Source: Candidatus Poriferihabitaceae bacterium
GTDB taxonomy: Bacteria > Pseudomonadota > Gammaproteobacteria > Arenicellales > Poriferihabitantaceae
DNA length: 64,000 nucleotides
Assembly (NCBI GenBank): GCA_965243285.1
Contig: OZ251537.1
Coordinates: 570,387 to 634,386, forward strand
Direction of reading: 5' to 3'
Positions 19,516 to 63,034 of the stretch are shown piece by piece. A program made the translations under genes and the position numbers. The notes beneath the pieces are model-generated. The model saw only the letters and a program-made list of their open reading frames with translations. It was not told where the DNA came from and did no database searches. How positions within the stretch are numbered: the stretch's first letter is position 1; each line of letters begins with the position of its first letter.

Positions 19516-19543
19516 TATCCGCGGTGTTTTCTAGCAAAAGTTA

Positions 19544-21652: not shown

Positions 21653-21706
21653 AATCCTGCCGGCATCGAAATCCCCCCTTATATCCTTCGAAAATTCGCG
21701 CAGCCC

Positions 21707-22678: not shown

Positions 22679-22752
22679 AATATTGGGTATAATCGCGCCA
22701 TCGACGATATGCTGATTGCATCCAATTCAACCAAAACATCGAGACCACCGCC

Positions 22753-23488: not shown

Positions 23489-23617
23489 GGGGGAGTAAAA
23501 CGTTAAAAGCAAAAGCAAAAGCCCAAAAGCAAAAACAAAAATCAACCGCAACCCCCTAACTCAGCCGCTGACCTCAAAAACCGCCAATCTAACTGCAGAT
23601 TTAGGTATATAAATCCC
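23489..23617 (+). mobile_element. MITE half-copy (right arm with right TIR)
   Basis: Starts GGGGGAGTAAAACGTTAAAAGC and ends ...CTCAGCCGCTGACCTCAAAAACCGCCAATCTAACTGCAGATTTAGGTATATAAATCCC. The outer flank at 23618-23625 is CTTAATTT. Confidence 0.85.
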
Positions 23618-23817
23618 CTTAATTTCATTGTGCCGTTGCACATCTGATGCAGATGAGGAACTTATTTATGAAAAAGCACGGTTAATTTTTGATAACAATC
23701 ATTTTGCCGAGATAAAAAAACTTAAAATAAAACATCATTTTAACGGCTGGTTTTGTGTCTTCCAAGTCGGTCTATGAACAACCCGCTCATCCATCCACCC
23801 GACCAGGCTATAAAAAC

Positions 23818-24369: not shown

Positions 24370-24545
24370 TTTGGCTGTTGCTGTTAAGGCTTTGCTCCAC
24401 CCTATCTTTTTAGGGGGGAGCCAAAACTGGCGGCTTCATCGCCAGTTTTGGTGGGGGGTGCTTTTGATTTAGCTTTTGATTTGGCTTTTGATTTAGCTTT
24501 TGGCTTTCGCTTTCGCTTTTGACTTTTCGCTTTTGATTTAAAATG
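24370..24545. repeat. TIR-less cluster of MITE-type modules (hairpin + GCTTTT arm)
   Basis: GCTCCACCCTATCTTTTTAGGGGGGAGCCAAAACTGGCGGCTTCATCGCCAGTTTTGGTGGGGGG followed by GCTTTTGATTT-type repeats. Confidence 0.75.
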
Positions 24546-24568: not shown

Positions 24569-25390
24569 TCAATCGTTGTCGTGTAGCCCGGCGCCGGCGC
24601 CGCTTAGGCGGGATTCTGCGCTTGCTTCCACATAGGTCAGATGAGCGTATTGCTCCAAGCGCCGCCACACATCGGCCTCGACGCCGATGGCGTGCTGCGC
24701 GCCGGCTGATTCCGACCTCGCGCCTGTTTTCGCGGCAACATTGGCGGCCGCGCCGGCGGCGCCGGCATGTTGCCAACAGCGCATGCCCACCGCGGTTTCG
24801 ATGTTCACATCGCGGCGCGCGCCGTGTATTTGCGCGCCGCCGCCGCGGTAATGCACGCGCACCCGCGGCCAAGCGAGCGTTAACTCGAGGTCTTCGCTAG
24901 CTGCGGCCAGACCGACAAACCCCGCCACCAGCAAGGGATAGGCGATTTCGCCGATTTCAGCGAGTTCGACGCCAGATTCGGTGCCAGGGTCGATGCCAGA
25001 TTCGGTGGGATGGTCGATGCCAGATTCGGTGCCATGGTCGGTGCCATGGTCGGTGCCAGGACCAGTGAAATGGTCGACGGCGCCATCTACATCGGGCCGC
25101 GCCAGGCAGTCGCTCAATGCGGCTCCTACCGCCAGCGGGTTGGTCACGCCGCCGCGGCCGCGCCACACCCCGCGCCACTGCGCCGGGGCGGTGGCCACAT
25201 AGCCGCGCTCGCGGTACTCATCCAGCCAATTCACCAGCGCCGCGGCGCCGTCCAAGCCATGGTCGCACAGCCACCGCACCGCGTATCCGGCGTCATCCGC
25301 CAGCCCCCAGGGCAGCCCGGCGCCGCGCGTCGCCTTGCGCGCCGTGTGCTGAATTTGGTTGCGCGAACAGGGTATGGATGGGGTGGTCAT
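24569..25390 (-). CDS. DUF3726-like protein with internal 12-nt tandem repeat
   Basis: The N-terminus ...ARKATRGAGLPWGLADDAGYAVRWLCDHGLDG matches my recollection of the DUF3726 N-terminal motif (unverified). Central GTDHGTDHGTESGIDHPTESGIDPGTESG repeat. Confidence 0.5.
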   Translation of the reverse strand: MTTPSIPCSRNQIQHTARKATRGAGLPWGLADDAGYAVRWLCDHGLDGAAALVNWLDEYRERGYVATAPAQWRGVWRGRGGVTNPLAVGAALSDCLARPDVDGAVDHFTGPGTDHGTDHGTESGIDHPTESGIDPGTESGVELAEIGEIAYPLLVAGFVGLAAASEDLELTLAWPRVRVHYRGGGAQIHGARRDVNIETAVGMRCWQHAGAAGAAANVAAKTGARSESAGAQHAIGVEADVWRRLEQYAHLTYVEASAESRLSGAGAGLHDND

Positions 25391-25401: not shown

Positions 25402-25935
25402 TTAAAGAAAAAGCGAAAAGCAACAGCAAAATCGACATTAAAAGCAACATCAAAATCAACAACCAAAGCGAAGTCTAAAGCGAAATCTAAAGCTAAGTCT
25501 AAAGCGAAATCTAAAGCTAAGTCAAAAGCGAAAAGCAACAGCCCCCCACCAAATCAGCCCGAGTCTATCGGCTCGGGCTGATTTGACTCCCCCCAGATGA
25601 AGCGGGGGAGTAAAACAAAAGCCAAAGCCAAAAGCGAAAAGAAAAATTAAAAGCAACAGCAACAGCAACATCAACATCAAAAGCAACCCCTCCCCACCAA
25701 AACTGGCTAAAAGACGCCAGTTTTGACTCCCCGCCCAGCGGGGAGTCAAGAAAAAGCCCAAAAGCGAAAATCAAAATCAAAAACGAAAGCACCCCCCACC
25801 AAAACTGGCGATGAAACCGCCAGTTTTGGCTCCCCCCTAAAAAGATAGGGTGGAACAAAGCCTTGAACAGCCACAGCAAAAGCGAAAGCAAAAGCCAAAA
25901 ACCAAAATCAACAGCCAAAGCAAAAAACCAAAATC
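25402..25935. repeat. cluster of MITE-type modules (several hairpins, AAAAGC arms), no TIR
   Basis: At least three G6/C6-flanked hairpins (25545-25590, 25677-25725, 25793-25835) embedded in AAAAGC-type microsatellite. Confidence 0.75.
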
Positions 25936-25939
25936 AAAG

Positions 25940-26045
25940 GCCACCAAATTTACTGCCCATCGGCCCGAATCCGACTCGAATCCGGCCAAATTCCCCCGAA
26001 TCCGGCCTGAATCCACCCAAATCCACCCAAATCTGCCTAACTCCG
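25940..26045. repeat. phased A/T-tract array
   Basis: CCGAATCCGACTCGAATCCGGCCAAATTCCCCCGAATCCGGCCTGAATCCACCCAAATCCACCCAAATCTGCC. Confidence 0.65.
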
Positions 26046-27844: not shown

Positions 27845-28168
<324 letters not shown>

Positions 28169-28306
28169 TTTCGCCTTTGAGTCTTCACTCCCCCCCTGCT
28201 TTTTTCGAGGGGGAGTGAAACGTTAAAAGCCAAAGCCAAAGCCAACATCACCCCCACCGAGTAGCAACCTCTGCTGGGGATTTAGGTATAGGCCTGCCAA
28301 ATTAAA

Positions 28307-28665
28307 AGTGGGAGCCGGCCGATAAGCCGGGTTCTGTCGAGGACAGTCATTCATCTGCGGCATTCGTCGCCGAATGCCTCGAGCGACCTACCCGGACCCG
28401 TAGACGAGGGCGGCGCCGTGGGTCCCTATTCGGTCTTGCTCCAGGCGGGGTTTGCCATGCCGCCGCTGTTGCCAGCGACGCGGTGCGCTCTTACCGCACC
28501 ATTTCACCCTTACCCCCACCTTGTCGACTCGGGGCGGTATATTTTCTGTGGCACTTTCCGTCGGCTCGCGCCGCCCAGGAATTACCTGGCACCTTGCCCA
28601 ATGGAGCCCGGACTTTCCTCCTCGTTAGGCGTGGCCTAACGAAGCGACTGCCTGGCCGACTCCCG
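28307..28665 (-). ncRNA. rnpB: RNase P RNA, bacterial type A
   Basis: The reverse complement contains GGAGGAAAGTCCGGGCTCCATTGGGCAAGGTGCCAGGTAA, ...GGGTAAGGGTGAAATGGTGCGGTAAGAGCGCACC, ...ACAGAACCCGGCTTATCGGCCGGCTCCC. It is collinear with E. coli M1 RNA, including P1 pairing of GGGAGTCGGCC with GGCCGGCTCCC. Confidence 0.92.
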
Positions 28666-30494: not shown

Positions 30495-30599
30495 GGAGTG
30501 CTTTATCCCTAAATCCGCATGTTGGAATGAGTTGAAGATTTAAAGGCAACAGCAAAAAGACCAACAGCAACAGCCCCCCACCCAAAACTGGCGAATGTC

Positions 30600-31308: not shown

Positions 31309-31409
31309 AAGGGATTTTGTCGGGCTATTAAATTCCAAAATCAACAGCGAAAATCAACAGCGAAGTCAAAAGCAAAATCAAAATTAACAGCCCCCACCAA
31401 CCCTCCCCC

Positions 31410-34489: not shown

Positions 34490-35030
34490 AACCTGATTTG
34501 GGATTTTGATTTTCGATTGTCGTTTTGGCCTTTAAATTTTCACCCCATCAGCCACAAAAGATGAGTTAAAAGATACAACATCAACATCAACATCAACATC
34601 AACATCAACATCAACATCAACATCAACATCAACAGAAAAATCAAAGTCAAAGCAACATCAAAAGCGAACAGCAACAGCAACAGCGGAAATCAAAAGCGAA
34701 AAGTAACAGCCACAACCACAGCGGAAATCAAACGCACCCCCCACCAAAACTGGCGATGAAACCGCCAGTTTTGGCTCCCCCCTAAAAAGATAGGGTGGAG
34801 CAAAGCCTTAACAGCAAAATCAAAAGCCAAAGCGAAATCAATAGCCAGATCAAAGCCCCCCCACCAAAGCAGCTCACGCCGGTCGGCGCGGCTCTGCTTT
34901 GACTCCCTCATGATGTACGCGGGGGGAGTGAAGATTAAAAGCCAAAGCCAAAGCCAACGCGAAAAGCAACATCAAAAGCCAAGAACCAAGCTAAACCCAA
35001 ACCGCAAACCCTAAAATCAAAAACCAAAAA
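34490..35030. repeat. cluster of MITE-type modules, including a (CAACAT)~10 microsatellite at 34576-34634
   Basis: Central-module variant TTTAAATTTTCACCCCATCAGCC, a CAACAT array, two hairpin modules (34737-34785, 34850-34900) and AAAAGC arms. No TIR seen. Confidence 0.75.
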
Positions 35031-36721: not shown

Positions 36722-36759
36722 TCATCGGCTATGATTCCAGTCACCCGATTTGGATGCGG

Positions 36760-37200
<441 letters not shown>

Positions 37201-37229
37201 AGACCGCCACCTCCCTAAAAACACCTACC

Positions 37230-38331: not shown

Positions 38332-39249
38332 GTGTCAAACCAAACCCAGCATGTCGATGGCCACGCCATCAAAACGGACGCTGCCGCTTATCGACAACAA
38401 CTCGCTATCGGTAATGCGCCCACATGCGAGAGCAAAACATCGCATATTAATTGTTTGACGGCTAAGCAATGGCTTAAAAGTCAACTAGGTGTATGGCAAT
38501 TCACCTATGAAAAAAGGGACATAAGAAAAAAAGACTTGCACCCCGCCACCTTCCCTATCGGCATGGCCAAAAAAATCATAGCGTTATTTACTCATCAAGG
38601 CGAGTTGGTTTTAGATCCATTCGTGGGTAGCGGTACCACTTTGGTGGCGGCGCAAGATTTGAATCGAAACGCACTCGGTTTTGATTTACAAGAAACCTAT
38701 ATCGATTTGTGCGAGCAACGCCTTGCCAGTGAAAACTTATTTAATAAATCAATGCAAATCGCCATTCAAGATGATGCGATTGGCATCCCCGCTTATTTAA
38801 GTGAAGGCGCGGCGAGTTTGATTTGGACTTCGCCACCGTATGCCAACATGCTCAACAGAAAACGCACCAATAAATCCCGCCGCGACAGAAAAAACGAGCA
38901 ATATTTGCAGGTCGAGCAATACTCTCAAGACCCGCGGGATTTAGGCACCATGGAACTGCCCGAATACACTGCAGCGATGGGCGATATTTACGAATCCCTG
39001 CTGCCGTTGCTCAAACCAAAAGGCCATTGCGTGATAAATGTTCCCGATATGTGGTGGGATAATCAACGCATAACTTTGCATGTTTCGTTGATTCAAGAAT
39101 TGCGAAACCGTGGCTATGAATTTCGTAACACCATCATTTGGGACCGCACCAACATCGTTAACAAAGTGGGAATTTTCGGCTGGCCGAGCAATTACATCAC
39201 TCTGGGAACCACCTTCGAATACCTACTGGATTTTTGGAAGCCGGCATAA
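38332..39249 (+). CDS. DNA methyltransferase, PF01555-type with motif I before motif IV (SPPY; possibly N4-cytosine)
   Basis: LDPFVGSGTTLVAA (FxGxG) precedes LIWTSPPYANM. AT-rich island. The gene downstream is a BcnI/MvaI-family endonuclease, whose known partners are m4C MTases. Confidence 0.8.
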   Translation: MSNQTQHVDGHAIKTDAAAYRQQLAIGNAPTCESKTSHINCLTAKQWLKSQLGVWQFTYEKRDIRKKDLHPATFPIGMAKKIIALFTHQGELVLDPFVGSGTTLVAAQDLNRNALGFDLQETYIDLCEQRLASENLFNKSMQIAIQDDAIGIPAYLSEGAASLIWTSPPYANMLNRKRTNKSRRDRKNEQYLQVEQYSQDPRDLGTMELPEYTAAMGDIYESLLPLLKPKGHCVINVPDMWWDNQRITLHVSLIQELRNRGYEFRNTIIWDRTNIVNKVGIFGWPSNYITLGTTFEYLLDFWKPA

Positions 39250-39254
39250 AACGG

Positions 39255-40034
39255 ATGAAAATTTATACCAAAGCGGAACTGATTTCCGACCTGAAGAACA
39301 TCCGCGAACGCGGCTGGATAGCCAGCACCAGGCCAGGCAATGCCGACAGCGTCGGCAACACCCTCGAAGACTTGCTCGGACTAGCAGAAAACAATTTACC
39401 CATCCCTAACGCCGGGGAGTGGGAGTTGAAGGGTCAAAGAAAAAACACTACTTCGTTGCTTACGCTTTTTCACATGGAACCTTCGCTGCGAGCTATACGG
39501 TTTGTCCCACAAGTGTTTTTGCCTAATTATGGTTGGCCGCATAAAGAGGCCGGGCGAAAATATCCTGCTACCGAAATGAGTTTTCGCCAGACCATTCACG
39601 GCACCAGAAGTGAGCGTGGATTCAAGCTTGTTGCGGCTAGAAAAAGTAAAAAAATTCTCGTCTCCTTTGATGCCGAATCCGTGCACGACAAGCATGCGCA
39701 GTGGCTCGATTCAGTCGACCGCAAGGTTGGGGTTGATGAGATAAACCCGCAACCCTAGTGGGGATTTGACGATCTTTTTTATAAAGCGGGCACTAAATTA
39801 TTGCGTTGCTTTTATTTGCAGGCTAAAGTCAAGCAAATTCGCGGCAAAACCCATTTTCGCTATGACGACATAACCATTCTTCAAGATTTTTCTATGGATA
39901 ACTTGGTCGCTGCGTTGGAAAATGGCGAGATGTTGATTGATTTTGATGCGCGAACTGGGCATAACCATGGCACTAAATTTCGTTTGCGACAGAACTCGTT
40001 ACCGGCGTTGTATTTCAGCGTTGATAAGATTTAA
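39255..40034 (+). pseudogene. BcnI/MvaI-family type II restriction endonuclease with an in-frame TAG at 39756-39758
   Basis: MKIYTKAELISDLKNIRERGW...GEWELKGQRKNTTSLLTLFHMEP parallels R.BcnI (MKIWSKEEVVNKLHEIKNKGY...GEFELKGMRNRKAKSNLTLFHKKP). The same frame continues after the TAG (WGFDDLF...GHNHGTKFRLRQNSLPALY versus GPHDRGPHLRIPISKLDKLY). Confidence 0.8.
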
Positions 40035-45061: not shown

Positions 45062-45525
45062 GGGGGTGATGGATAGGAAGGTGGGGGTTGCCGGGTGGCT
45101 TTGATTTGCTTTTGCTGTTGCTTTTGCTTTTGCTTTTGCTTTTGGGCTTTTTCTTACTCCCCGCTGGGCGGGGAGTCAAATCAGGCGGCTCTATCGCCTG
45201 ATTTGGTGGGGAGGGGTGGCTCTTGATGTTGCTTTTGATGTGGCTTTTGATGTGGCTTTTGATGTGGCTTTTGATGTGGCTCTTGATGTTGCTTTTGATG
45301 TGGCTCTTGATGTTGCTTTTGATGTGGCTTTTGATGTGGCTTTTGATGTGGCTTTTGATGTGGCTTTTGATGTGGCTTTGGCTTTTTGCCTTTAGTCTTC
45401 ACTCCCCCCGCTTCATCATGAGGGGGAGTCAAAACTGGCGTCTTTTTGCCAGTTTTGGTGGGGGGGTTTGAGCTGGCTTTGAGCTTTTGATTTTGGCTTT
45501 TGATGTTGCCGCCCCCCATCATGCG
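45062..45525. repeat. cluster of MITE-type modules, including a 12-bp tandem array (TGATGTGGCTTT)~13 at 45225-45375
   Basis: GCTTTT arms and two hairpin modules (45175-45215 CAAATCAGGCG type; 45420-45460 CAAAACTGGCG type). Abuts the thiP start codon. Confidence 0.8.
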
Positions 45526-45586: not shown

Positions 45587-48500
45587 TTATTTTTCGATGG
45601 CGGCCGGGCGATTGGTGATGGTAGGTTCAGCGGCGAGGAGTTTTCGCCACTCAGCAGTTTTGGCGGGGTCCACGCCCAAACATTTGGCGGCGGCATGGTC
45701 TAATATTTTGCGCGCCGGGTCAGTGTGACATTGGGATATGCGTTCGAGGGGAGTGTCTTTGGTTTTCTCGAAGGCTTTGAGAAGGGGGGATAAATCTAGT
45801 GCCGGGTCGGGCAAGCGTATGGTTTTTAGATGCTCATATTCATATGCAGGCAAATCCAATCGGCCTGAACGACGATTTAACATTTGGATAATGCCAAATG
45901 TTGAGTTCATAAAGACCGCATAGGCTTTGGCTGTGTTTTTATCTTTGGCTTTAATCGGGCGAAATACAGTTCCTATTGCCGGGGTTTCACTATAAACAGC
46001 CATTAATCGGCTAGTGGTTGTTCTTAATAAGCACCCAATAAGAAAATGCGATGCTTTTTTTTGTGTTCTTTTAGCTTGCCTTTCTGATCCAGTCTTGGGC
46101 GTAACTTTGGTTTCTGGTTGACTATTGATGGTTAGCATAACGTTCGTTTTAATGGTGCAAAACGCATTGCCGTTTTCGCTTGGTTTTTTGTTAAAAAATT
46201 CATGTGTATCAGCGGTGCGAAATTGCATCTCAAAAGAATCGCCAGCGCTCGAACAATTCGGCAAAGTATTCATGTCCTCGGCGATATGGGCAAGGGCGGG
46301 ATTAAACCATTGTACCGGTGACCAATTGCCGTCTTTCACTCTTTCGGCTGGCCATAAGGTTCGAGTAAATGATTCGCTTGGCTTGCCGGACTGGATGGCG
46401 GCGATTAATTCAAATGCAGATAAGACCTCGGTGGGGTATTTTGCTAACTGAATAAATCGTGTTGGTTTAGGAGTACCAAGTCCGCGACGGCCAATAATCA
46501 TAGATGTGAAAATGCTATCAGCCCCGTTTGCAAAGTTTTTATGATATTTGTCATGCGAAGTGAGCACTATATCAATATGGAAATGTTTAGCCAGGTATTG
46601 GCGTTGCCCACGGGCATTTTCAGCAGTGCAAACCGTGGTAGGAACGATCATGCCAAATACGCCTTTAGTTTTATTAATCAGCCGGTGGACTACTGGAATG
46701 AAATACGGTTGAATACTTCCTTCGGCGAGTGCATGTGCAGAATCTGCTTCGTTATCAATCAAATGCTGACGAAGTTGTGTCAAGCGTTCACGCATGCTTT
46801 TTACGGTGGCATCATTAAAATGAGTATTTTGCTCCGTGGTTTTTGTAAACGGCGGATTGAAAATCATCGCATCTAAATTTTGCGGCGGGCGGAATTCTTT
46901 GCGGCGGCGCTCGGCGTCGGCGCCATAAATCACCTCGTCATCCAAATCGGCGATGCATACTTGCACGGATTCTTCCCCGGCCTTGCCCAATAATATTTCC
47001 AATGCGCCATGGCGTACATCCTCTGGTTTGTCGCCGGCGGTATTGCGCAATGGCCCGTGTTGCAGGGTATACAGATTCATGCCGCGATAATCGGTGTTGG
47101 GGGCGCCGATGGTTAAATTGCAAGCCGCCAATTGAATCGCCTGTAGGTTGATGTCGAAGCCGTGAATAACATTCTCCACCAAATGTTTGTGCAGGTGTTC
47201 TTGCTGGGCATCGGAGAGACCTTGCGCTGCGGCCGCTTTATCTTTGATGGCTTTCAGTGCCGCCATCAGCAAGGTGCCGGTGCCGCAGGCCGGGTCGGCG
47301 ATTTTTAATTTCTGCACTGCTTTTTTATCCGACCAATCTACGAAGGAATCGTCAAACGCCAAGCCCGCCAACAAATAGGCTGACCGGTTTTTGGTGTAAT
47401 AGGCACCAGAACTTTTGGCGGAACCCAAGATTAGGTGATACAGGTGGCCAGCGTGGTCGAAGCCCAGATCATTCAGGCGCTCGGCCTTGGTCATGGCGCA
47501 CATCGCCAACAATTTAATGGCGGTACGACATTTCTTGAGACCGATAAATTTTTGCATCAAGGCGGTGGCATCTTGAAAAATTGGGCGGTAATCCTTTTCC
47601 AAAATGGTAAGCCATGCGGCATAAAAGGCGGTCGCAGTCTCCGCGTCGCGCTTCGCATCTTCTAAGTTGGTGAGGCCATATAAATTGCCGGTGGAATCTA
47701 AACGCTTATGCATGATGCAGGCGTTGACGATGAGCAGGGCGGCGGTGGTGCAACTCTCGGTGGCATTATCCAGCGGCGTGCCGATGGTCTCGGCGATGCG
47801 GTGGGCTACGCCGGCTTCTTTGAACATGGTAGCGGCTTTTTCCACCTCAGAAGCAATTTCATCGGCCACAGTTTCACCGGGGTTGTCCTTGATGCCGACA
47901 TTTTTTGCCATCTGTGCGGATAGGGCGTTTTTGGCTTGCTCGGTCAGCATGGGGATGTTATCCGGCGTAACCGGGCCCGATGTGGGCGGTGCTTTTTTAG
48001 TGCCATCGGGCTCATCCAGCACTTCACCCATCACCACATGTAACTTGGTGTCAAAACTGCCATCATGCGAACGCATGGCATTGAGTATCACGCCCAAGGA
48101 TTCAAAACGAGAGTTATTTTTCTGCAAAGTGGTCAACAAGTTCTCGCCCGGCGCCATGATCACCGGGGCGATGACATAGCCGAATTTTTTATGCGGGTTT
48201 TTGCGGTCGATGCGCATGGCACGGCCGACTGCTTGCACAGTATCCACCTTGCTTTGGCGTGGGTCCAAAAAGGCGATGGCGTTTAGCGCCGGCACATCGA
48301 TGCCTTCGGTGAATAGTCTGGCATTGCTGATGAGGCGTGGCTGCACATCATCGGCGTCTCGCAACCAATCCAAACCGGTGCGGCGCTGGGCGGCGTTATA
48401 GGTGCCGTCTAAATGCTTGGCATCGATGTCCAGCACCGAACGGTCATCGCTTTTTTGCGCCACCCATTTTTTAATGCCGGGGCTATTCACCGCTTTGGTC

Positions 48501-50023
48501 AGCCATTTAGAGCGGCGGATATTATTAGCAAACACGATGGTGCGGGCGATGGAATCCGGATGATCATCGCCTTTTATAAAGCCATTGATAGCCATGGCGA
48601 TAGCGCCTAAGGCGAGCACCGATTGCGCATCGGCTTCTTCACCGACGCCATCTTTATCGTCATTTAATTCGAGCAATTGATCGATTAATTCGGCGCTGAT
48701 AATTGACTCGGTCAAGCCTAAGGCGATGACACGGTAATCGCACAAAATGTCCGCTTCCACGGCTTGTTTGAAAGTGATATTGGCGAAGGTTTCGCCGTAA
48801 AAAATCTCGTCGTTCATCTCCACCAGTTGCTGATTTTCATCGGCGGCGATGTTTTTCTTAACCTTGCTTTCGCCATAAATTCGCGGCGTGGCCGTCATGT
48901 ACAGACGGTAGTCGGCACGCAGTTGGGCGGCGTCATGGATGGTTTTGAATCCCTCATAGGTGAAGTCACTTTCGTCGTCTTTTTTCTTCAATAGGCCGGC
49001 GGTGCGATGGGCTTCATCGACGATGGCTAAATCAAATTTCGGCGCTTGATGCTTATGTTGGGCCTCGATTAATTTCGGCAGGGATTGATAGGTGCAGAAA
49101 GTTACCTGGGCCTCATCGGCTCGGATGGGGCTGTTTAGGTAGGCGGCGATTTTTTTCGGCTCGGTAGTCACGCGGCCGGCGATTTCATTGGGCTGGATTT
49201 CTTCATTGTCGCCGGCGGTTTCGTCCGAGCAGATGACCAAGGTGCGCAAGCGACGAAGGCTTTGTTCCCGCCATTCGCGGCGGGCTTGGGCCACCAAAGC
49301 GATGGACGGTGCGATGAATAAGATATTGGCGGCGGTGTTTTCATCGGCCGGCGGAATCTGCTCGGCGATGCGCAAGGCGGTGAAGGTTTTGCCGGTGCCG
49401 CAAGCCATGATTAAGGTACCGCGACGGTCGCCATGTTTGCCGGGTTCGGCATTTTTCAAACCGTTTGCTACGGTATTTATGGCCGGCTTTTGTAATTTTA
49501 GGGGTTCATGGATTTTTCGAGGTTCGATGGTGAGTACGGTGTCGCTGTAATTGCGCATGTCGATGACTTTCACATCGTCAAAACCGGCATCTGTGGTGAC
49601 TGCATTGATAGAGAATCCGAGGGCGCCGAATACCAGCCATTTTTCTGCTATATCGGCCTGTTTGGCGGCGCCGATGAAGGTGGAAATGTCCTTCCATGTG
49701 ATATTTCGGGTAGTCCAAAATTTGCATTGAATGGCGATTTGGTAGCCATCCTCATGGGTGGCGATTAAATCCACGCCGATGTCGGTGCTACGGGGGCTTT
49801 TTACGCTGGTGATTCCCAGGTCACTAATCAACGGCAATGCCCATTGGGTTAATTGCTCAAACTTCTTGCCTTTCTCCACATTGGCATCAGAAATTTGGGC
49901 GAATTCATCCAACTTTTCACCAACGGTTTTACCGTCAAAATCATGCAATTGCAGGTGTTTTTCATACTCGGCGGCGGTGAATCCAGGGAGAAATTCCGAC
50001 TGCTTATGGGTTTTATTTGACAT
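45587..50023 (-). CDS. Type ISP-like single-polypeptide restriction-modification enzyme (Mrr-like nuclease + SF2 helicase + N6-adenine MTase + TRD)
   Basis: N-terminal PD-(D/E)xK-like DIGVDLIA...IAIQCKF. Helicase motifs MACGTGKTFT, VDEAHR, TATPR and QAVGRAMR. MTase motifs DPACGTGTLL and IFNPPFTK. 1478 aa, comparable with LlaGI/LlaBIII architecture. AT-richer than the flanks. Confidence 0.8.
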   Translation of the reverse strand: MSNKTHKQSEFLPGFTAAEYEKHLQLHDFDGKTVGEKLDEFAQISDANVEKGKKFEQLTQWALPLISDLGITSVKSPRSTDIGVDLIATHEDGYQIAIQCKFWTTRNITWKDISTFIGAAKQADIAEKWLVFGALGFSINAVTTDAGFDDVKVIDMRNYSDTVLTIEPRKIHEPLKLQKPAINTVANGLKNAEPGKHGDRRGTLIMACGTGKTFTALRIAEQIPPADENTAANILFIAPSIALVAQARREWREQSLRRLRTLVICSDETAGDNEEIQPNEIAGRVTTEPKKIAAYLNSPIRADEAQVTFCTYQSLPKLIEAQHKHQAPKFDLAIVDEAHRTAGLLKKKDDESDFTYEGFKTIHDAAQLRADYRLYMTATPRIYGESKVKKNIAADENQQLVEMNDEIFYGETFANITFKQAVEADILCDYRVIALGLTESIISAELIDQLLELNDDKDGVGEEADAQSVLALGAIAMAINGFIKGDDHPDSIARTIVFANNIRRSKWLTKAVNSPGIKKWVAQKSDDRSVLDIDAKHLDGTYNAAQRRTGLDWLRDADDVQPRLISNARLFTEGIDVPALNAIAFLDPRQSKVDTVQAVGRAMRIDRKNPHKKFGYVIAPVIMAPGENLLTTLQKNNSRFESLGVILNAMRSHDGSFDTKLHVVMGEVLDEPDGTKKAPPTSGPVTPDNIPMLTEQAKNALSAQMAKNVGIKDNPGETVADEIASEVEKAATMFKEAGVAHRIAETIGTPLDNATESCTTAALLIVNACIMHKRLDSTGNLYGLTNLEDAKRDAETATAFYAAWLTILEKDYRPIFQDATALMQKFIGLKKCRTAIKLLAMCAMTKAERLNDLGFDHAGHLYHLILGSAKSSGAYYTKNRSAYLLAGLAFDDSFVDWSDKKAVQKLKIADPACGTGTLLMAALKAIKDKAAAAQGLSDAQQEHLHKHLVENVIHGFDINLQAIQLAACNLTIGAPNTDYRGMNLYTLQHGPLRNTAGDKPEDVRHGALEILLGKAGEESVQVCIADLDDEVIYGADAERRRKEFRPPQNLDAMIFNPPFTKTTEQNTHFNDATVKSMRERLTQLRQHLIDNEADSAHALAEGSIQPYFIPVVHRLINKTKGVFGMIVPTTVCTAENARGQRQYLAKHFHIDIVLTSHDKYHKNFANGADSIFTSMIIGRRGLGTPKPTRFIQLAKYPTEVLSAFELIAAIQSGKPSESFTRTLWPAERVKDGNWSPVQWFNPALAHIAEDMNTLPNCSSAGDSFEMQFRTADTHEFFNKKPSENGNAFCTIKTNVMLTINSQPETKVTPKTGSERQAKRTQKKASHFLIGCLLRTTTSRLMAVYSETPAIGTVFRPIKAKDKNTAKAYAVFMNSTFGIIQMLNRRSGRLDLPAYEYEHLKTIRLPDPALDLSPLLKAFEKTKDTPLERISQCHTDPARKILDHAAAKCLGVDPAKTAEWRKLLAAEPTITNRPAAIEK

Positions 50024-53451: not shown

Positions 53452-53754
53452 AACCGCGCCGCCCAGCCGCATTCTGCCGCCAAACTTGCCGCCAAACTTG
53501 CCGCCAAACCACCCGCCGCTCGGTCGCCGCTGGCCATATCGGCCGCCGGGCCGCATCGGCGACGGTGGCTCGGGGTTTGACATGACGGCTGGGGTTGTAT
53601 TAAATTCGGCTACCGTTACTGAAATCCCCGGCCAATTTGCTTTTGCTTTAGGCGACTTTTGGTAGACATTCGCCAAAACAATCGTCAAATACAGTCGTCA
53701 CTAGGGCCGGCGGCTTCACCCCCCCCTTTGCACTCCCCAACCGAGCATCGACCC

Positions 53755-56700
53755 ATGAAAAAATCACCCATAGCCACTCGCCAGCCCCACTGGTTGTTGC
53801 AAATCGCCTTAGGCGTATTGATTTTTGGCGGCTCCATCAGTACCACAACGGCGAGCATAACCATCAACATAACCGATGGTATCGCCCCCACTTTGGAGGT
53901 TGATCCGCCGGTCATCGATTTCAACGCCGAAACCATCACCTTTGATTTTGATGAGGTGATCGATGTATCTGAAATCGATACCAGTAATTATATGGATGGG
54001 CCTCGCACGCGTTTTCATATGGGTATTGTTGACCGTAGACAAGTAGACGCAGTGTCGCTGGACGGCGCCCTGCTGACCAGCGTCGATTCAGACATAGTAG
54101 TCATGTCGATAAGCAGATCTCTAAAGCAGAGGGCGCTGCGGATACTTGACCGCACCTCTGCCGTCTACATAGATGTCTCTAACACCGCCATACAAGACCT
54201 CGCCGGCAACCACTTCGCCGGGCTGGATATTGTCCAATTAACTGTCGTCGAAGACACCACAGCGCCTACCCTAAGGGACACGGCGCCGGCTTTTAACCTC
54301 AGCACCGGGGTTATCACCTTTAATTTTGATGATTTCCTTGAGTTCGGCAGTTTCCGCAGTATCGGCCTCTCCAAAATCACCATCACCGACAACAATGGCG
54401 AAAACGGCGTATCACTTACCGGCGCCGCCATCGTGCCTCTGAACGACTCTGAAACCTTCGTAGTAACTCTGACTGAAGAACAACGGCAGCAAGCCATCCG
54501 GCTCCAATACGGGGCGAATACCCCGATTCGAGTGGATATTGCTGCAGACGCATTTTTCGATTTAAGCGGCAACGGCAACGCCAGCGTGGTTGGTTTAGCG
54601 TTTACGCTCACCCGGGACGACCCTTTTCATTTTCTGCCCGCCCATGATGACATTGGCATTCCATTGAACGAGTTTTTTACGACCACTTTGCCGGCCATCG
54701 TCACCACCAATGCCGACCCGAGTGCCTTCACATACCGCCTCGATGGCGACTTGCCCCCCGGGATGAGTTTCGTTGCCGACACCCGAATTTTAAGCGGCAC
54801 GCCAACTCAATCAGTGGTTGATGTCGCATTGTCATACGTCGCCACGGTCGGCACGGTAACACGCGGTGCCGAGTTGTTCCTCCTCTCCGTAGGCTCAGAC
54901 CTTGTCCTTATTGATAATCCGGGCGACATGACTTTTGCAGTGGGGCAGGCGGTAGACATGACATTGCCGAAGGCGAGTGGTGGTTATGGCGACATCGTCT
55001 ACCGCCTCACCGATAATAATGGCGACGCTTTTGCCAGCGATACGGTGCCGGGCTTGATGTTTGCCTCCACCGACGATGGCGGTGTTTTAAGCGGCACGCC
55101 GAGCCTGAGCGCCGCCGGCGTGCATACGCTCACCTACAACGCCACGGATGAGCGCACCCCGGTCAATGCATCGCCGCCTTCTTTCACCGTGACCATCACA
55201 CTGCCGGAGTTCACCACCACCCCCCCGAGCGGCAACCTCATCTATAGGGTGGGCGAACCATACGATGCCGTGCCTTTGCCGGATGCGACCCAAGGCGCCG
55301 GGTCGATCATCGGTTACACCTTGATTTGGGATTGCACTATATTGAACGGTGCCACGCTGACCCTTGAGCAATGCGGCCGCATCAAAGACATGGTCGGGAT
55401 AGATGATGAGTCTTCATCGACCCCCCAATCCCTAAACGCCATCACCTCAACGCATTGGGCTGCCCTCGCCGCCGCCGTGCCGAATTTTAATGCGATGTTG
55501 CCGTTGAGTTTTCCGCTGGTCTACACCGCCACCGATAATTTCGGCAATACCGCAGTCGGCAATTTCAATATCGTCATCACCATACTGCCGGCGCCGGTGT
55601 TTGCCACCACCCCGACCGCCCGTACCTATCGGGTGAACCTCCCATCCCCCGCCATGCCTTTGCAGCAGGTGGTCAGCGATTCCCCCAATCTCAGTTACGC
55701 CTTGGCTTGGGATTGCGGTCTAGTGGACAACACCACGCTGGCGGATACGCCATGCGACGCCATCAAAACCATGTTGGGGCTGGTTGATTCGGCTTCATCG
55801 ACCGCCATCACCCTACCGGCGATAACCCAAACGCAGTGGGATACCTTCGCTGTCGCCGTGTCGGATTTTAATGCGCTGCCGCTGAGTTTTTCGCTGGTCT
55901 ACACGGCGGACGATAACACCGGCAACGACCCGGCCATGGTCTCGTACGCCATCACCATCACACTGCCGGCGCCGGAGTTCGACAGCACTGCCTTCGAAGA
56001 CCTCGTCTATACGGTGGGCCAGCCAGCCGAGGCCACGCCGTTGCAAGCGGCGGACAGCCTGGCTGAATCGCTCACTTACGCCCTGCTGACTTGGGATTGC
56101 GGTCTATTGGACAACACCACCACGCTGCCGGATACGCCATGCAACGCCATCAAAACCCTATTAGGGCTGGATGGAATGGATGTAATGGATTCACCGACCC
56201 CCATCACCCTACCGGCGATAACCCAAATGCAGTGGGATGACCTCGCTGACGTGCCGGATTTTAATACGCTGCTGCCGCTGAGTTTTTCGCTGACCTACAC
56301 GGCGGACGATAATATCTCCGTCAACGGCCCGACCACGGTTTCTTTCACCATCACCATCAGGGCATCCTCCACCTTCGCCGAGACCAACGAAGTGATTTTG
56401 CCGGAGGTCATGCGGGCGATTACCAACAGCGCCACGGCCGCCATCACCGACCGCATCGGGCAGGCTGCTGGGCGAGCCGCTGGGCCGGCCGGCGGTTCGG
56501 GCGCCAGTTTCAGCCTGGCTGGGCATGACAATATCGCCAGCCTATTGGCCGGGCGTGGCGAGGAGATGACAGCCGATGACTTCGATGCCAAAAAACTGCT
56601 GGCCGGGGCCCAATTCGCCATACCGCTCAAGGGCGTGGGCGGTGACGGCGGGGTTGTCCCCGGCTCGGCGGTGTTCTGGGCCAGCGGCGAATACTCGGCG

Positions 56701-57744
56701 TTAGACGGCGAGGATGATGCGGTGGATTGGGATGGCGATTTGCTCGGCTTTCAGGTCGGCGTCGATGCCAAAGTGCGGCAAAATCTGTTGCTCGGGCTGT
56801 CCATATCCCGCTTGGCGAGCGATTTGGAATATGAAACACCCGTAGCCGGCGGCGATTATGAAATCGACATGACCAGCGTGCATCCGTACCTCGCCTGGCG
56901 CGCCGGGGCGCTGGATTTATGGGCCTCGGTGGGCCTCGGCGAGGGTGATTTACGCATCAAACCCGCCGTCGGCGTGGCCCAATCCGCCGACCTCAACATG
57001 ACTTCCCTAAACGGCGGTTTGAGCGGCTCGGTGTGGCAACAAAGCGCCGCCGACATGCGATTCAAGGGCGAACTCGGGGTAAGCGAACTGAAAACCGACG
57101 CCGCCGGCAATATGGATGACACCTCCGTCACCACCACCCGCATTCGCGTCGCCTTGGAAGCCAGCCTGCCCCGCCGGTTGGCCAGCGGCGCCTCATTAGC
57201 GCCGTCTATGCAAGTCGGCTTGCGCCATGACGGCGGCGACGGCAACACCGGCGGCGGCGTCGAGGTCGGCGGCGTTTTGCGCTACCACAATCCGGCTACC
57301 AACTTCACCGCCGAAGGGCGAGTTCGCGCCCTGCTCGCCCACAGCGCCGAGCAAGAAGAATGGGGCTTGCAAGGCACTGTGATATTAGGCGCCGGCGCCG
57401 ACGGGCAAGGTTTGTCGCTGAACTTAACCCCCAGCTACGGCGACGCCGCCAGCGCCCAGCAGCAGTTATGGCATGACGGCGTGGCCAGCGCCACCACCGC
57501 CGCTGCCGACAAAACCGCCGACTACAGCGCCACCCTAAACAGCCGAGTAGGGTACGGCGTAGCTTTGCGCGACGGCTCATTATTAGAGCCATACAGCGCG
57601 TTGACTTTGGGCGCCGCCGACACCTACCGCATCGGCATGCGCTGGAAAAGCAGCCAAAACCTCACCCTGAATTTACTCGGCGAACGCCACCAGACCGCCA
57701 CCGCCAACAACGCCATCATCCTAAAAGGCGCAATGCAGTTTTAG
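53755..57744 (+). CDS. autotransporter outer-membrane protein with repetitive passenger domain
   Basis: Signal peptide MKKSPIATRQPHWLLQIALGVLIFGGSISTTTA. Passenger with Ig/cadherin-like LPPGMSF...LSGTPT segments and three ~125-aa tandem repeats. C-terminal beta-barrel region ending ...LKGAMQF. Confidence 0.8.
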   Translation: MKKSPIATRQPHWLLQIALGVLIFGGSISTTTASITINITDGIAPTLEVDPPVIDFNAETITFDFDEVIDVSEIDTSNYMDGPRTRFHMGIVDRRQVDAVSLDGALLTSVDSDIVVMSISRSLKQRALRILDRTSAVYIDVSNTAIQDLAGNHFAGLDIVQLTVVEDTTAPTLRDTAPAFNLSTGVITFNFDDFLEFGSFRSIGLSKITITDNNGENGVSLTGAAIVPLNDSETFVVTLTEEQRQQAIRLQYGANTPIRVDIAADAFFDLSGNGNASVVGLAFTLTRDDPFHFLPAHDDIGIPLNEFFTTTLPAIVTTNADPSAFTYRLDGDLPPGMSFVADTRILSGTPTQSVVDVALSYVATVGTVTRGAELFLLSVGSDLVLIDNPGDMTFAVGQAVDMTLPKASGGYGDIVYRLTDNNGDAFASDTVPGLMFASTDDGGVLSGTPSLSAAGVHTLTYNATDERTPVNASPPSFTVTITLPEFTTTPPSGNLIYRVGEPYDAVPLPDATQGAGSIIGYTLIWDCTILNGATLTLEQCGRIKDMVGIDDESSSTPQSLNAITSTHWAALAAAVPNFNAMLPLSFPLVYTATDNFGNTAVGNFNIVITILPAPVFATTPTARTYRVNLPSPAMPLQQVVSDSPNLSYALAWDCGLVDNTTLADTPCDAIKTMLGLVDSASSTAITLPAITQTQWDTFAVAVSDFNALPLSFSLVYTADDNTGNDPAMVSYAITITLPAPEFDSTAFEDLVYTVGQPAEATPLQAADSLAESLTYALLTWDCGLLDNTTTLPDTPCNAIKTLLGLDGMDVMDSPTPITLPAITQMQWDDLADVPDFNTLLPLSFSLTYTADDNISVNGPTTVSFTITIRASSTFAETNEVILPEVMRAITNSATAAITDRIGQAAGRAAGPAGGSGASFSLAGHDNIASLLAGRGEEMTADDFDAKKLLAGAQFAIPLKGVGGDGGVVPGSAVFWASGEYSALDGEDDAVDWDGDLLGFQVGVDAKVRQNLLLGLSISRLASDLEYETPVAGGDYEIDMTSVHPYLAWRAGALDLWASVGLGEGDLRIKPAVGVAQSADLNMTSLNGGLSGSVWQQSAADMRFKGELGVSELKTDAAGNMDDTSVTTTRIRVALEASLPRRLASGASLAPSMQVGLRHDGGDGNTGGGVEVGGVLRYHNPATNFTAEGRVRALLAHSAEQEEWGLQGTVILGAGADGQGLSLNLTPSYGDAASAQQQLWHDGVASATTAAADKTADYSATLNSRVGYGVALRDGSLLEPYSALTLGAADTYRIGMRWKSSQNLTLNLLGERHQTATANNAIILKGAMQF

Positions 57745-57796: not shown

Positions 57797-57828
57797 GGGC
57801 GACTCAGCCATGAGTCGCCCTTTTTTAT
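57797..57828 (+). terminator. rho-independent terminator of the autotransporter gene
   Basis: GGGCGACTC-AGCCAT-GAGTCGCCC followed by TTTTTTAT. Confidence 0.75.
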
Positions 57829-58043
57829 GGGATTTATATATCTAAATCTACACGGTGGCTTTGGCTTTGACTTTTCGCCTTTTTAGTCTTTAGTCTTTAG
57901 TCTTTGCTCACCCCATCAGCCACAAAGAGAGTTAAGAGATACAACATCAACAGAAAAATCAAAGTCAAACCCATCTCCCCCTAAATCAGCCGCTGACCTC
58001 AAAAAAACGCCAATCGAACTGCAGATTTAAGTATATAAATCCC
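57829..58043 (+). mobile_element. complete MITE copy (215 bp)
   Basis: Left TIR GGGATTTATATATCTAAATCTACACGGTGG. Right end ...CTGACCTCAAAAAAACGCCAATCGAACTGCAGATTTAAGTATATAAATCCC. Flanks TTTTTTAT / TTTTTTAG. Confidence 0.9.
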
Positions 58044-58075
58044 TTTTTTAGGGGAATGGCCGACCTAAATCCCCT

Positions 58076-60635: not shown

Positions 60636-61514
60636 ATGGCGAGAAAGAAAAAGGCGCGGCTTGGGCGCGGCTTGGGCGCCCTGCTGGGCGAGGTTCAGCA
60701 CGGCGTCGCGGCGACCGCGGCGTCGACGGCCGGCGGCTTGCGGCAGCTGCCCATCGAGCATTTGCGGCGCGGCAAGTATCAACCACGCCGCACCATGGCG
60801 CAGCCAGCCCTCGAGGAATTGGCCGAATCCATCCGCGTGGAGGGCGTCATTCAGCCCTTGTTAGTGCGGGAAATCGAGCCTGGTTGTTTCGAGATAATCG
60901 CCGGCGAGCGGCGCTGGCGGGGCGCCCAGTTGGCCGGCTTGGCGACCGTGCCGGCGGTGGTCAGGGAAGTGAGCGACCAAAGCGCCATGGCGGTGGCGTT
61001 GATAGAAAACATCCAGCGCGAAGACCTAAACGCCCTCGAAGAGGCCGGCGGCTTTGCGCGCTTGCTGGACGAATTCGGCTTGACTCACCAGCAAATCGCC
61101 GATGCCGTGGGCCGCTCGCGCGCCGCCATCAGCAACATTTTGCGCCTGCTGGGCTTGCACGCCGCCGTAAAAAAACTTCTCGAGGCCGGGAAAATCGACA
61201 TGGGACACGCCCGCGCGTTGCTCGCCCTGCCCACCTCGCGCCAGCCCGAAGCCGCGGCCCAAGTGGTCGCCGCCGGCATGACGGTGCGCGCCGCCGAGCA
61301 ACTAGTGAAGCGCATGCAGGCCGCCGCCGCCGGCGCCGACGACAAGCGCCAGGTCGCAGCCGAAAACAACCCCGATGTACTGCGCTTCGAAGAAGACCTA
61401 TCCACCCGCCTCGGCGCCCGAGTATCCATCCAACACGGCGCCAAAAAAGGCAAAGTGGTCATCCACTATCACTCCTTGGACGAACTGGACGGCATTATCG
61501 CGCGGATTAAATAA
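60636..61514 (+). CDS. parB: chromosome partitioning protein ParB/Spo0J
   Basis: ParB box GERRWRGAQLAG and IENIQREDLN; HTH THQQIADAVGRSRAAISNILRLL. Confidence 0.9.
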   Translation: MARKKKARLGRGLGALLGEVQHGVAATAASTAGGLRQLPIEHLRRGKYQPRRTMAQPALEELAESIRVEGVIQPLLVREIEPGCFEIIAGERRWRGAQLAGLATVPAVVREVSDQSAMAVALIENIQREDLNALEEAGGFARLLDEFGLTHQQIADAVGRSRAAISNILRLLGLHAAVKKLLEAGKIDMGHARALLALPTSRQPEAAAQVVAAGMTVRAAEQLVKRMQAAAAGADDKRQVAAENNPDVLRFEEDLSTRLGARVSIQHGAKKGKVVIHYHSLDELDGIIARIK

Positions 61515-61515
61515 A

Positions 61516-61722
61516 GGGATTTATATATCTAAATCTGCACGGTGGGGTTGATTTTTGCTGTTGCTTTTACTGTTAATGCTTTGCTCCCCCAGATGAAGCG
61601 GGGGGGAGTAAAACGTTAAAAGCCAAAGCCAAAGCAAAAGCAAAAGCCAAACGCAACCCCTAAATCAGCCGCTGACCTCAAAAAAACACCAATCGAACTG
61701 CAGCTTTAGGTATATAAACCCC
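61516..61722 (+). mobile_element. complete MITE copy (207 bp) inserted at the parB stop codon
   Basis: Left TIR GGGATTTATATATCTAAATCTGCACGGTGGGG. Right end ...CTGACCTCAAAAAAACACCAATCGAACTGCAGCTTTAGGTATATAAACCCC. Exact 8-bp TSD TAAATAAA at 61508-61515 and 61723-61730. Confidence 0.9.
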
Positions 61723-61814
61723 TAAATAAACATCTCTATTAGCGATAACGGTGGCATGGTTAGAATCAACCGCATTATCCATGCTTAATTAATATTTTTC
61801 GAGGCCTATAACAG

Positions 61815-62456
61815 ATGCAAAAATCTCCACAGGAAACCCCAAATTCTAGTTATAAAATTTATAACGCCAAGGTGCTAAAAAAAACAAAACATAGCGTCCT
61901 TGATGGGTTTTTTCCGCCACTGCCGGACGAAAAATATTCGATAATATACGCCGACCCGCCGTGGCATTATAACGGCAAAGTACAATTCGATAAATCGGGT
62001 AACAGTGATTGTAATAAAGACTGGCAAAAAGACGTTTTTGTCAGCGCCGCATCGTTCAAATATCCAACCATTAAAACCAAAGAATTGATAACTTTGGATT
62101 TAGAAAAAATTGCCGAAAAAAATTCGCTATTGTTTATGTGGACAACCAATCCGCATTTGCAACAAGCCATAAATCTCGGCTCCGCGTGGGGGTTTGAATA
62201 TAAAACTGTGGCTTTTGTATGGAACAAAATGGCGCACAACCCCGGGCAATACACACTTTCATACTGTGAGCTATGCCTGCTTTTTAAAAAAGGAAAAATA
62301 CCGACCCCAAGAGGCACCAGAAATATAAAACAACTACTCAATATCGCGCGCTCAGCATTTGTCGCCAATGCATCGCTTTCATCTTGCCAAAGATCACGCT
62401 TCCTTAATTCGTTGGTGCCCATGCTTGAAAGTGCTATCTGTAGATTATTAAATAAG
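61815..62456 (+). pseudogene. MT-A70-family (DPPW) N6-adenine DNA methyltransferase, 3' end interrupted by a MITE
   Basis: IIYADPPWHY motif IV, then FMWTTNPHL and GFEYKTVAFVWNK. AT-rich. After ...RGTRNIKQLL I cannot find the expected HS.KP/ELFAR motifs in any frame, and the ORF runs into MITE sequence at 62457. Confidence 0.65.
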
Positions 62457-62940
62457 GGGAGTTATATACCTAAATCTGCAGTTCGATTGGCGTTTTTTTG
62501 AGGTCAGCGACTGATTTAGGGGGCTACTTTTGCTTTTGGCTTTTGGCTTTTGGCTTTGGCTTTTGGCTTTGGCTTTTAACTTTTTACTCCCCCCCGTGCT
62601 TCATCTGGGGGGAGTCAAATCAGGCGGCTTTATCGCCTGATTTGGTGGGGGGCTGTTGATGTTGGTCTTTTTGTTTTTGCCTTTAAATCTTCAACCCATC
62701 AGCCCAAATGAGGAATGAGGTAAAAACCAACAGCCAAGTCAACAGCCAAATCAATAGCCAAATCAATAGCAACAGCCAAATCAAAAGCCAACATCAAAAG
62801 CCAACATCAAAAGCAACCTCTCCCCACCAAAACTGGCGATGAAGCCCGCCAGTTTTTGACTTATCCCGCATTAAAACCGGGGGAGTAAAGCGTAACAGCC
62901 AAAATCAAACCCACCGTGCAGATTTAGGTATATAACTCCC
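62457..62940 (-). mobile_element. complete MITE copy (484 bp), reverse orientation
   Basis: Starts GGGAGTTATATACCTAAATCTGCAGTTCGATTGGCGTTTTTTTGAGGTCAGCGACTGATTTAGGG (right end, reverse complement) and ends CCCACCGTGCAGATTTAGGTATATAACTCCC (left end, reverse complement). Exact TSD TAAATAAG at 62449-62456 and 62941-62948. Confidence 0.9.
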
Positions 62941-63034
62941 TAAATAAGAATACGGAGTTTATGTTTTTTACAAAAAACGATGGCAAAAGTCAAATGCGCG
63001 CCAAGTGTCCACCGCATATCGATAAATTTAAACC

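Follow-up and report, generated by a model that had tools for sequence, protein, structure and literature searches.

Miniature inverted-repeat elements with 8-bp target-site duplications in a 64-kb stretch of a Candidatus Poriferihabitaceae genome

The stretch of DNA considered here (the window) is 64,000 nucleotides of Candidatus Poriferihabitaceae bacterium, taken from contig OZ251537.1 of assembly GCA_965243285.1 (positions 570,387 to 634,386), and is interspersed with copies of a short repeat family that has the structure of a transposable element of the miniature inverted-repeat type (MITE). The cleanest copy lies at the end of parB (60636-61514), whose product contains the domains ParB_N, HTH_ParB and ParB_C (Pfam scan). 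This copy is 207 bp long (61516-61722) and is flanked by TAAATAAA at 61508-61515 and again by TAAATAAA at 61723-61730, a match at 8/8 positions. Its two ends, GGGATTTATATATCTAAATCTGCA and, in reverse complement, GGGGTTTATATACCTAAAGCTGCA, are terminal inverted repeats (TIRs) that are identical at 21 of 24 positions. The 3' end of parB reads ATT AAA TAA, with the stop codon (61512-61514) inside the left duplicate; since this TAA was the stop codon before the insertion as well, ParB is unaltered by the MITE. Both the identical 8-mers and the position of the parB stop codon had been pointed out in a sequence-only reading of the window, and both are seen here.

Structure and target sites of the elements

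The 24-bp TIR consensus, GGGATTTATATAYCTAAATCTGCA, is matched 14 times in the window at no more than three mismatches and 0 times in 100 dinucleotide-preserving shuffles. The ends fall into two main types: in the A end the TIR is followed by CGGTGGGTTTG (n = 5) and in the B end by GTTCGATTGGCGTTTTTTTGAGGTCAGCGGCTGATTTAGGG (n = 6). Three variant ends lie beyond these types, and the one at 13086-13109 represents a third type. Conservation extends over 35 nt in the A end and 65 nt in the B end, with end-profile scores of E = 1e-5 to 1e-22. The TIR is itself palindromic (GGATTTA-TATAYC-TAAATCC), as seen from reverse-strand self-matches in the profile search, and the 7-mer recurs a third time in the B end (TGATTTA), at 53-59 nt from the tip.

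The interior of the elements is modular. T-rich hexamer arrays of the GCTTTT type, frequently with a 12-nt super-period, are accompanied by two hairpins, P1 (CTCCCCCC-loop-GGGGGGAG) and the C6-flanked P2 (CCAAA(TCA/ACT)GGCG-7 nt-CGCC(TGA/AGT)TTTGG), and a centre module, TTTAAATCTTCAACTCATTAG...AATGAG, is followed by a complementary A-rich arm of the AAAAGC type. When folded as single-stranded DNA and compared with shuffles, the 207-bp copy gives z = -5.6 and the 484-bp copy z = -10.9. The 14 P2 hairpins in the window form two subfamilies that are distinguished by compensatory changes at two of the base pairs; pairing holds in 97.5% of cells. This compensation may be a single event between the subfamilies and is therefore evidence that the arms stay complementary; repeated selection is not demonstrated by it.

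Duplications of 8 bp occur at five sites, four of them perfect (8/8) and one matching at 7/8 positions; the complete copies are listed in Table 1, and the fifth site is that of a split copy whose ends at 5912 and 23617 are flanked by CTTAATTT and its reverse complement (8/8). Elements bounded by TIRs span 76-743 bp. The smallest (19769-19844) approximates a B end closed by a second TIR, and its right TIR includes the stop codon of the open reading frame (ORF) 19834-20511 (-); the flanks of the largest (12089-12831), TAATTAAT and AAAACAAA, are unrelated. The duplications are AT-rich, with 6-8 A/T of 8, in a window of 42.5% A+T where 8-mers with at least 7 A/T make up only 4% of all 8-mers, and several of the targets resemble YTTATTTA/TAAATAAR. 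Because such targets resemble gene ends, which are rich in stop codons, insertions come to lie on or beside stop codons (parB; ORF 19834-20511).

Coding capacity within the elements is lacking, as all of their ORFs are repeat-derived, of low complexity and shorter than 100 aa. Pfam scans, which covered the non-overlapping ORFs that measure 90 aa or more and lie outside the repeat clusters, detected no transposase family in the window, the genes found being housekeeping, restriction-modification and defence genes instead; Y1/RAYT transposases were likewise not among these ORFs. No Rfam family matches the elements, and RNase P RNA is the sole Rfam match in the window. A role as outward promoter or terminator was rejected, since the surroundings of the elements show no excess of promoter- and terminator-like sites over shuffles.

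The sequence-only reading had anticipated much of this structure. Its 24-bp TIRs and 8-bp AT-rich duplications at independent sites are verified at five sites, its two end types are borne out by the end alignment and profiles, its description of the interior as a long snap-back with G6/C6-flanked hairpins agrees with the modules and the folding scores, and the Pfam scans agree with its statement that the window holds no transposase. Its sizes of 207, 215, about 340 (reconstructed) and 484 bp stand. The 743-bp copy also exists, without a duplication, and the smallest copy measures 76 bp, not 75. As to targets, AT-rich sites including stop codons are confirmed; terminator U-tracts are not, given the absence of any excess of terminator-like sites over shuffles.

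Table 1. Elements, halves of elements and module clusters in the window (positions are those of the window; a dot stands where no strand is assigned).
Feature	Position	Strand	Details
A-end half of split copy	5709-5912	-	TIR 5889-5912; outer flank AAATTAAG at 5913-5920; inner edge is left half of P1
743-bp A-to-B copy	12089-12831	+	Between spoT and ykuD; no matching duplication
Adjoining A-rich arm with third end type	12832-13109	-	TIR GGGAGTTATATACCTAAATCCCCA then TTGGTAGGTTGCTATTGGGGGGG; flank TAAATTTT
Solo A-like end, no partner end	19544-19567	+	GGGCGTTATATACCTAAATCCGCA
76-bp mini-element	19769-19844	.	CAAAAGAA at 19761-19768 and 19845-19852, 8/8
B-end half of split copy	23489-23617	-	TIR 23594-23617; outer flank CTTAATTT at 23618-23625; inner edge is right half of P1
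End-less module cluster, T-rich arm	24366-24542	.	Module 94-96% identical to those in TIR-bearing copies
End-less module cluster, A-rich arm	25409-25945	.	With 24366-24542 brackets gene 24569-25390 as inverted repeat
Decayed copy, borderline end 28276-28290	28070-28306	.	Abuts 3' end of RNase P RNA
Decayed copy, degenerate A end 30495-30525	30495-30594	+	Ends in mid P2 hairpin
Short end-less A-rich array	31337-31383	.	Beyond it, C5ACC...CTCCCCC remnant 31384-31408 without P2 hairpin
End-less module cluster: centre module and A-rich arm	34522-35029	.	
End-less module cluster	36759-37209	.	Possible decayed A end at about 37186-37215, not above shuffle threshold
End-less module cluster, T-rich arm with 12-nt array	45093-45509	.	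Adjoins Type IIG restriction-modification gene
Complete 215-bp MITE between two convergent gene ends	57829-58043	+	TTTTTTAT (57821-57828) and TTTTTTAG (58044-58051), 7/8
Left target-site duplication	61508-61515	.	TAAATAAA; contains parB stop 61512-61514
Complete 207-bp MITE, A-to-B	61516-61722	+	A-end TIR 61516-61539; B end 61658-61722; interior of T-rich hexamer arm, CTCCCCC/GGGGGGGAG hairpin and A-rich arm
Right target-site duplication	61723-61730	.	TAAATAAA
Complete 484-bp MITE, B-to-A on + strand	62457-62940	-	TAAATAAG at 62449-62456 and 62941-62948, 8/8; most complete copy in its modules, in order B end, T-rich arm (P1 and P2 hairpins), centre TTTAAATCTTCAACCCATCAG...AATGAG, A-rich arm and A end

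The split copy and the clusters without ends

The two halves of the split copy lie far apart in the window. Its A end (5889-5912) and B end (23594-23617) are on the same strand, the outer flanks AAATTAAG and CTTAATTT are mutually reverse-complementary, and at its inner edge each carries one half of a P1 hairpin, one breaking off after CTCCCCCCAGA and the other starting at GGGGGAG. The B half is adjoined by a low-GC ORF (22881-23498) that matches EcoRI_methylase at positions 43-251 of 345 (267 bits). When 22881-23487 is joined to the reverse complement from 5707 downward, one open frame results, in which PF13651 runs unbroken through positions 43-345 of 345 (360 bits, E = 1.6e-107), and together with the upstream frame the rejoined methylase matches positions 1-345 (442 bits); that upstream frame contains an in-frame stop. 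The pieces of this EcoRI-type adenine methylase are 22881-23487 (+) and about 5450-5707 (-). Inverting 5709-23488 rebuilds an element of about 340 bp with the perfect duplication CTTAATTT, and the methylase gene as well. Since one inversion restores element, duplication and methylase together, it is proven that the split copy is a single element divided by one 17.8-kb inversion, and the sequence-only reading, which had proposed a split copy, thereby gains independent evidence in the restored methylase ORF.

The inversion breakpoints (5707/5709 and 23487/23489) lie in the hairpin loop and at about codon 203 of the methylase and have no repeat in common; the event was an illegitimate joining at a palindrome, and neither homologous recombination nor a transposase reaction at the element ends. 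Immediately downstream of the restored methylase would stand a Type II restriction enzyme gene, apparently full-length (4372-5526, -), whose product matches PADLOC PDLC03418 at positions 1-372 of 372; Pfam recognizes GmrSD_N and HNH in it. With the methylase broken, an intact nuclease would harm the host unless it is inactive or its site is otherwise protected.

Repeats of the family are very dense in the window. By self-BLAST, 6,153 bp are repeated, of which 1,368 bp are three unrelated repeats, and the MITE-type repeats come to about 4.8 kb in roughly 16 loci, or 7.5% of the 64 kb. Under stricter definitions, a survey of 183,232 prokaryotic genomes found conserved MITEs to reach at most 123 per Mb and 1.23% of a genome (PMC11602168). 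The local density of 7.5% is above that maximum of 1.23%, a comparison between one window and whole genomes under differing definitions. If the window is typical of the genome, the organism would rank with the bacteria richest in MITEs so far known.

Eight of the clusters are without good ends. Profile and Smith-Waterman searches gave a degenerate A end above the shuffle threshold in one of them (30495-30525) and, by profile search, a borderline degenerate end in another (28276-28290); the remaining six have no end that these searches could detect. The earlier count of eight TIR-less clusters thus holds for six and not for these two, and its assignment of such clusters to the same mobile family is upheld only in part. 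Modules are found within TIRs in three copies with intact duplications, and modules therefore certainly travel as parts of the MITE. At 30575-30594 the cluster halts halfway through a P2 hairpin, whose left half (CCCCCCACCCAAAACTGGCG) is followed at once by unique DNA. Palindromes appear to be recurrent breakpoints.

Several clusters adjoin genes and other features. The borderline cluster meets the bacterial class A RNase P RNA at 28307-28663 (-), which is recognized at 330 bits. The clusters at 24366-24542 and 25409-25945 form an inverted repeat of 97 nt, 94% complementary, around gene 24569-25390 (DUF3726); this gene has native G+C content, and no TIRs are found at the outer edges of the bracketing arms. 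The same gene contains, in its coding region at 24966-25079, a tandem array of seven 12-nt units (TCGATGCCAGATTCGGTG-like, 12-nt spacing) that is unrelated to the MITE family, and a further internal repeat of about 1 kb (55306-56359) lies in a 1361-aa autotransporter gene (53659-57744; He_PIG and Autotransporter domains). The window is also rich in low-GC defence genes (2538-4314; 38332-39758; 45587-50023; 6228-6908), mostly adjoining MITE clusters, which include a candidate pair for HEC-01A/B (E = 3e-119 and 4e-44), a Type II methylase together with a nuclease of the MvaI/BcnI type, a Type IIG restriction-methylase of 1478 aa and an N-terminally truncated methylase.

Distribution among relatives and in other genomes

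The organism, whose genome is one contig of 2,793,270 bp, stands apart from its sequenced relatives: the best SpoT relatives are 64% identical, and nine window proteins that were looked up are all singleton clusters at 90% identity. In two relatives at this level of SpoT identity, the syntenic gmk-rpoZ-spoT-(phosphatase)-ykuD-nagZ-acrB block is compact, and neither the TIR nor a module was found within it. Both carry a gene for a 158-aa low-molecular-weight phosphatase between spoT and ykuD (L040 12170-12695; L041 12245-12746). The corresponding interval of the window (12063-13139) has no phosphatase gene and is filled by a 1-kb MITE cluster (12089-13109). Because the syntenic loci of the relatives are free of repeats, the repeats were added in this lineage; with only 64% SpoT identity between the genomes compared, this shows lineage-specific gain and is not proof of recent movement.

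Strict scanning for the TIR across 185,579 species-representative genomes, a collection in which the source genome is not contained, returned one match, in the metagenome-assembled genome (MAG) UBA6724. This TIR, GGGATTTATATACCTAAATCCGCA, has one mismatch, the same variant as in the copy at 12089, and lies about 45 nt downstream of purD (locus L001 5646-5840, DKIG01000027.1) in a genome of about 53% G+C. Beyond it lies AT-rich DNA that is unrelated and unique, and after another 171 bp the contig stops. The TIR is probably the end of an autonomous insertion sequence (IS) or of another derivative, and as a repeated IS would give an assembly break of this kind just past its end, the pattern suggests a multi-copy IS that interrupted the assembly. 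Two short ORF ends beside the TIR, joined as a 40-aa query, shared no words with any protein in the collection.

Other collections yielded nothing that could be linked to the family. The strict TIR scan of JGI metagenomes gave no match, and a 96-aa repeat-derived ORF, searched as a proxy for copies genome-wide, had no homologues. The 21 matches of a loose TIR scan of IMG/VR were rejected as chance or coding, none having a partner end, as were the chance matches of 19-30 nt that were all BLAST found between the B end and 72,556 plasmids. The P2 hairpin module had 16 matches in metagenomes, all of them generic terminator hairpins without C6 flanks. The TIR core sequences were not found in searchable full-text papers. 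With the TIR absent from those papers, Rfam, plasmids and JGI metagenomes and present in one MAG, the earlier description of the family as undescribed is not contradicted.

Nature of the family and its implications

The repeats have every structural feature by which a MITE can be tested, namely TIRs, duplications of fixed length, small size and no coding capacity, and with their copy number and the lack of a transposase nearby the MITE interpretation of the sequence-only reading has been verified in each structural respect. Among MITEs, comparison may be made with the Correia elements (CREE/NEMIS) of Neisseria. These form a very abundant family of bacterial MITEs with TIRs of about 25 bp, snap-back potential, a location at gene ends and several size and end variants. 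Correia elements differ in duplicating TA instead of 8 bp, in TIR sequence, in a fixed size of about 100-155 bp and in the lack of hexamer arrays; identity with them is ruled out by the 8-bp duplication and the different TIR. BrickBuilt of Porphyromonas gingivalis is a strictly intergenic, species-specific MITE with inverted-repeat ends and a tandem array of variable length between leader and tail units (PMC4596501). A tandem array inside a MITE is common to both; the BrickBuilt unit is 23 nt in one orientation, whereas the family described here has 6/12-nt units in two complementary arms, and the ends differ. BrickBuilt has 19 copies per genome, against a much higher local density here, as judged from one window only.

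Repetitive extragenic palindromes (REPs) and the bacterial interspersed mosaic elements (BIMEs) built from them are intergenic mosaics of G+C-rich hairpins in alternating orientation, with other short motifs interspersed and arms that stay complementary (PMC2817692). Hairpin mosaics with complementary arms are thus a shared feature. REPs differ in having no TIRs or duplications and in being linked to a Y1 (RAYT) gene, whereas TIRs and duplications are both present in the copies described here and the window showed no RAYT gene; on these grounds REP/BIME identity was rejected for the TIR-bearing copies.

The family is very probably a lineage-specific group of MITEs whose movement depends on a DDE transposase acting in trans with staggered cuts of 8 bp. 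Such a DDE-type transposase, encoded elsewhere or now lost, would be supplied in trans and would bind the repeated GGATTTA/TAAATCC 7-mers of the ends; the two ends would be paired and inserted into AT-rich DNA at a staggered cut of this kind. The size range from 76 to 743 bp may result from slippage in the hexamer arrays together with gain and loss of palindromic modules, and the palindromes would then serve as breakpoints for deletions and inversions.

Duplications of 8 bp are made by several IS families, including ISL3, ISKra4/ISMich2, IS256 and IS6. The leading candidate for the enzyme is IS1595, a tentative assignment that we regard as a lead and not as a result, and it leads because 8-bp AT-rich duplications and ends that start with GG are common to that family. 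The motif GGGnnTTAT may also fit the end consensus of the ISNwi1 group (ggnnatTAT). Both the 8-bp duplication and the AT-rich target preference of IS1595 are found in the MITE family. The IS1595-family elements ISApl4 and ISEc69 (IS1016 group) make 8-bp duplications with a strong AT-rich preference, such as TTAATAAA and AAATTTAA of ISApl4 (PMC12561309, PMC7835479), and further likenesses are ends that start GG(G) and insertions that are mostly intergenic. The differences are that published IS1595-family TIRs are 14-19 bp long (GGGGCTGT...) and unrelated in sequence to the 24-bp palindromic TIR, and that no transposase with IS1595 DDE or zinc-ribbon domains is linked to these ends. IS1 was considered as parent and rejected: the B end agrees with the left inverted repeat of IS1A over 13 nt (GTTTTTTTGAGGT) at the same distance from the tip, 9/500 shuffles are as good (p about 0.02), and the TIR itself is unaligned.

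Several observations weigh against a single MITE family of this kind and against its proposed parentage. Flank comparison in the window found no duplication at the 743-bp copy or at the three solo ends. The modules of the end-less clusters are 94-96% identical to those within TIR-bearing copies, and given this identity, the decay of old copies by point mutation alone would not account for the missing ends of the six clusters. No autonomous element with these ends was found in the window, and the UBA6724 contig stops before any gene. Beyond their leading Gs, published IS1595 TIRs (GGGGCTGT...) are unlike the family TIR, and the published IS1016-group TIR GGGGCTGTACTAGA does not align with it. 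No close relative exists in which presence/absence polymorphism or an empty site at the identical position could be seen. For the missing ends, possible explanations are truncation at palindromes, gene conversion that homogenized interiors and left edges untouched, and an independent mode of spreading; truncation is possible because two more cluster edges (30594; 31384-31408) lie at a half or deleted P2 hairpin.

An independent mode of spreading would mean that the hairpin and hexamer modules are a separate system resembling REP/BIME or REPIN elements, spread or homogenized independently of TIRs by an HUH/RAYT-type enzyme or by gene conversion, and that the MITE captured them or inserted among them. 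Besides the six clusters and their module identity, this reading can draw on the 97.5% pairing and the compensatory changes of the P2 hairpins, on cluster edges and an inversion breakpoint located in hairpin loops, and on the A-rich arrays, which are themselves AT-rich targets, one B end abutting an array at 12832. We consider it unlikely, since three copies with intact duplications hold modules inside their TIRs, so that modules move with the MITE; the Pfam scans of the window found no Y1/RAYT transposase, the GTAG-type REP signature is absent, the P2 compensation may reflect one event separating two subfamilies, and the C6-flanked module was not found in metagenomes, leaving it no independent distribution. 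The same low probability is given to its more specific form, in which two non-autonomous elements are interlocked and the G6/C6 hairpins and arrays are independent of TIRs, their loops being cut by a structure-specific or HUH-type nuclease. If a second system did exist, it would explain both the end-less clusters that so closely resemble MITE interiors and the breakpoints in hairpin loops, including that of the 17.8-kb inversion that split the restriction-modification methylase.

The copies at 61.5 and 62.5 kb might instead be arms of one composite, MITE-bracketed transposon (61516-62940) with a low-GC methylase as cargo. They are inverted relative to each other with A ends outermost, the outer flanks TAAATAAA and TAAATAAG match at 7/8 positions, the 718-bp segment between them has 40% G+C and encodes a truncated Type II/MT-A70 methylase (PDLC03262 positions 5-139 of 204), and MITE-bracketed composites are known (PMC3934969). 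Each copy nevertheless has its own perfect duplication on both sides, as expected from two insertions into TAAATAAR sites, the copies differ greatly in size and interior (207 vs 484 bp), and a similar duplication elsewhere in the window (CTTAATTT, complement AAATTAAG) points to target preference, so that a composite seems rather improbable. Within 61508-62948, each of the four sequences that flank these two neighbours reads TAAATAA(A/G), which could be target preference or a composite transposon. The repeats might also be immobile intergenic sequences of structural or regulatory nature (terminators, small-RNA genes or protein-binding arrays) multiplied by recombination, in keeping with their strong folding and intergenic position near gene ends; this is very improbable, given that the TIRs are conserved, that five sites have exact 8-bp duplications, that promoter- and terminator-like sites are not in excess, that there is no Rfam match and that the syntenic loci of relatives lack the repeats.

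Taken as a MITE family, the repeats are another example of a familiar class and do not constitute a novel type of system; their mechanism is ordinary unless a second system is represented by the end-less modules, and the known mechanism of such elements is unchanged by these findings. They help in annotating this genome, where their effects are visible. One element marks the inversion of 17.8 kb by which a Type II restriction-modification pair had its methylase broken, others lie on the stop codons of genes, and one cluster fills the place of a gene that relatives have kept. The occurrence of the same TIR in an unrelated MAG points to an uncatalogued insertion sequence. The family provides strain markers and a tractable example of microsatellite growth within a bacterial transposon.

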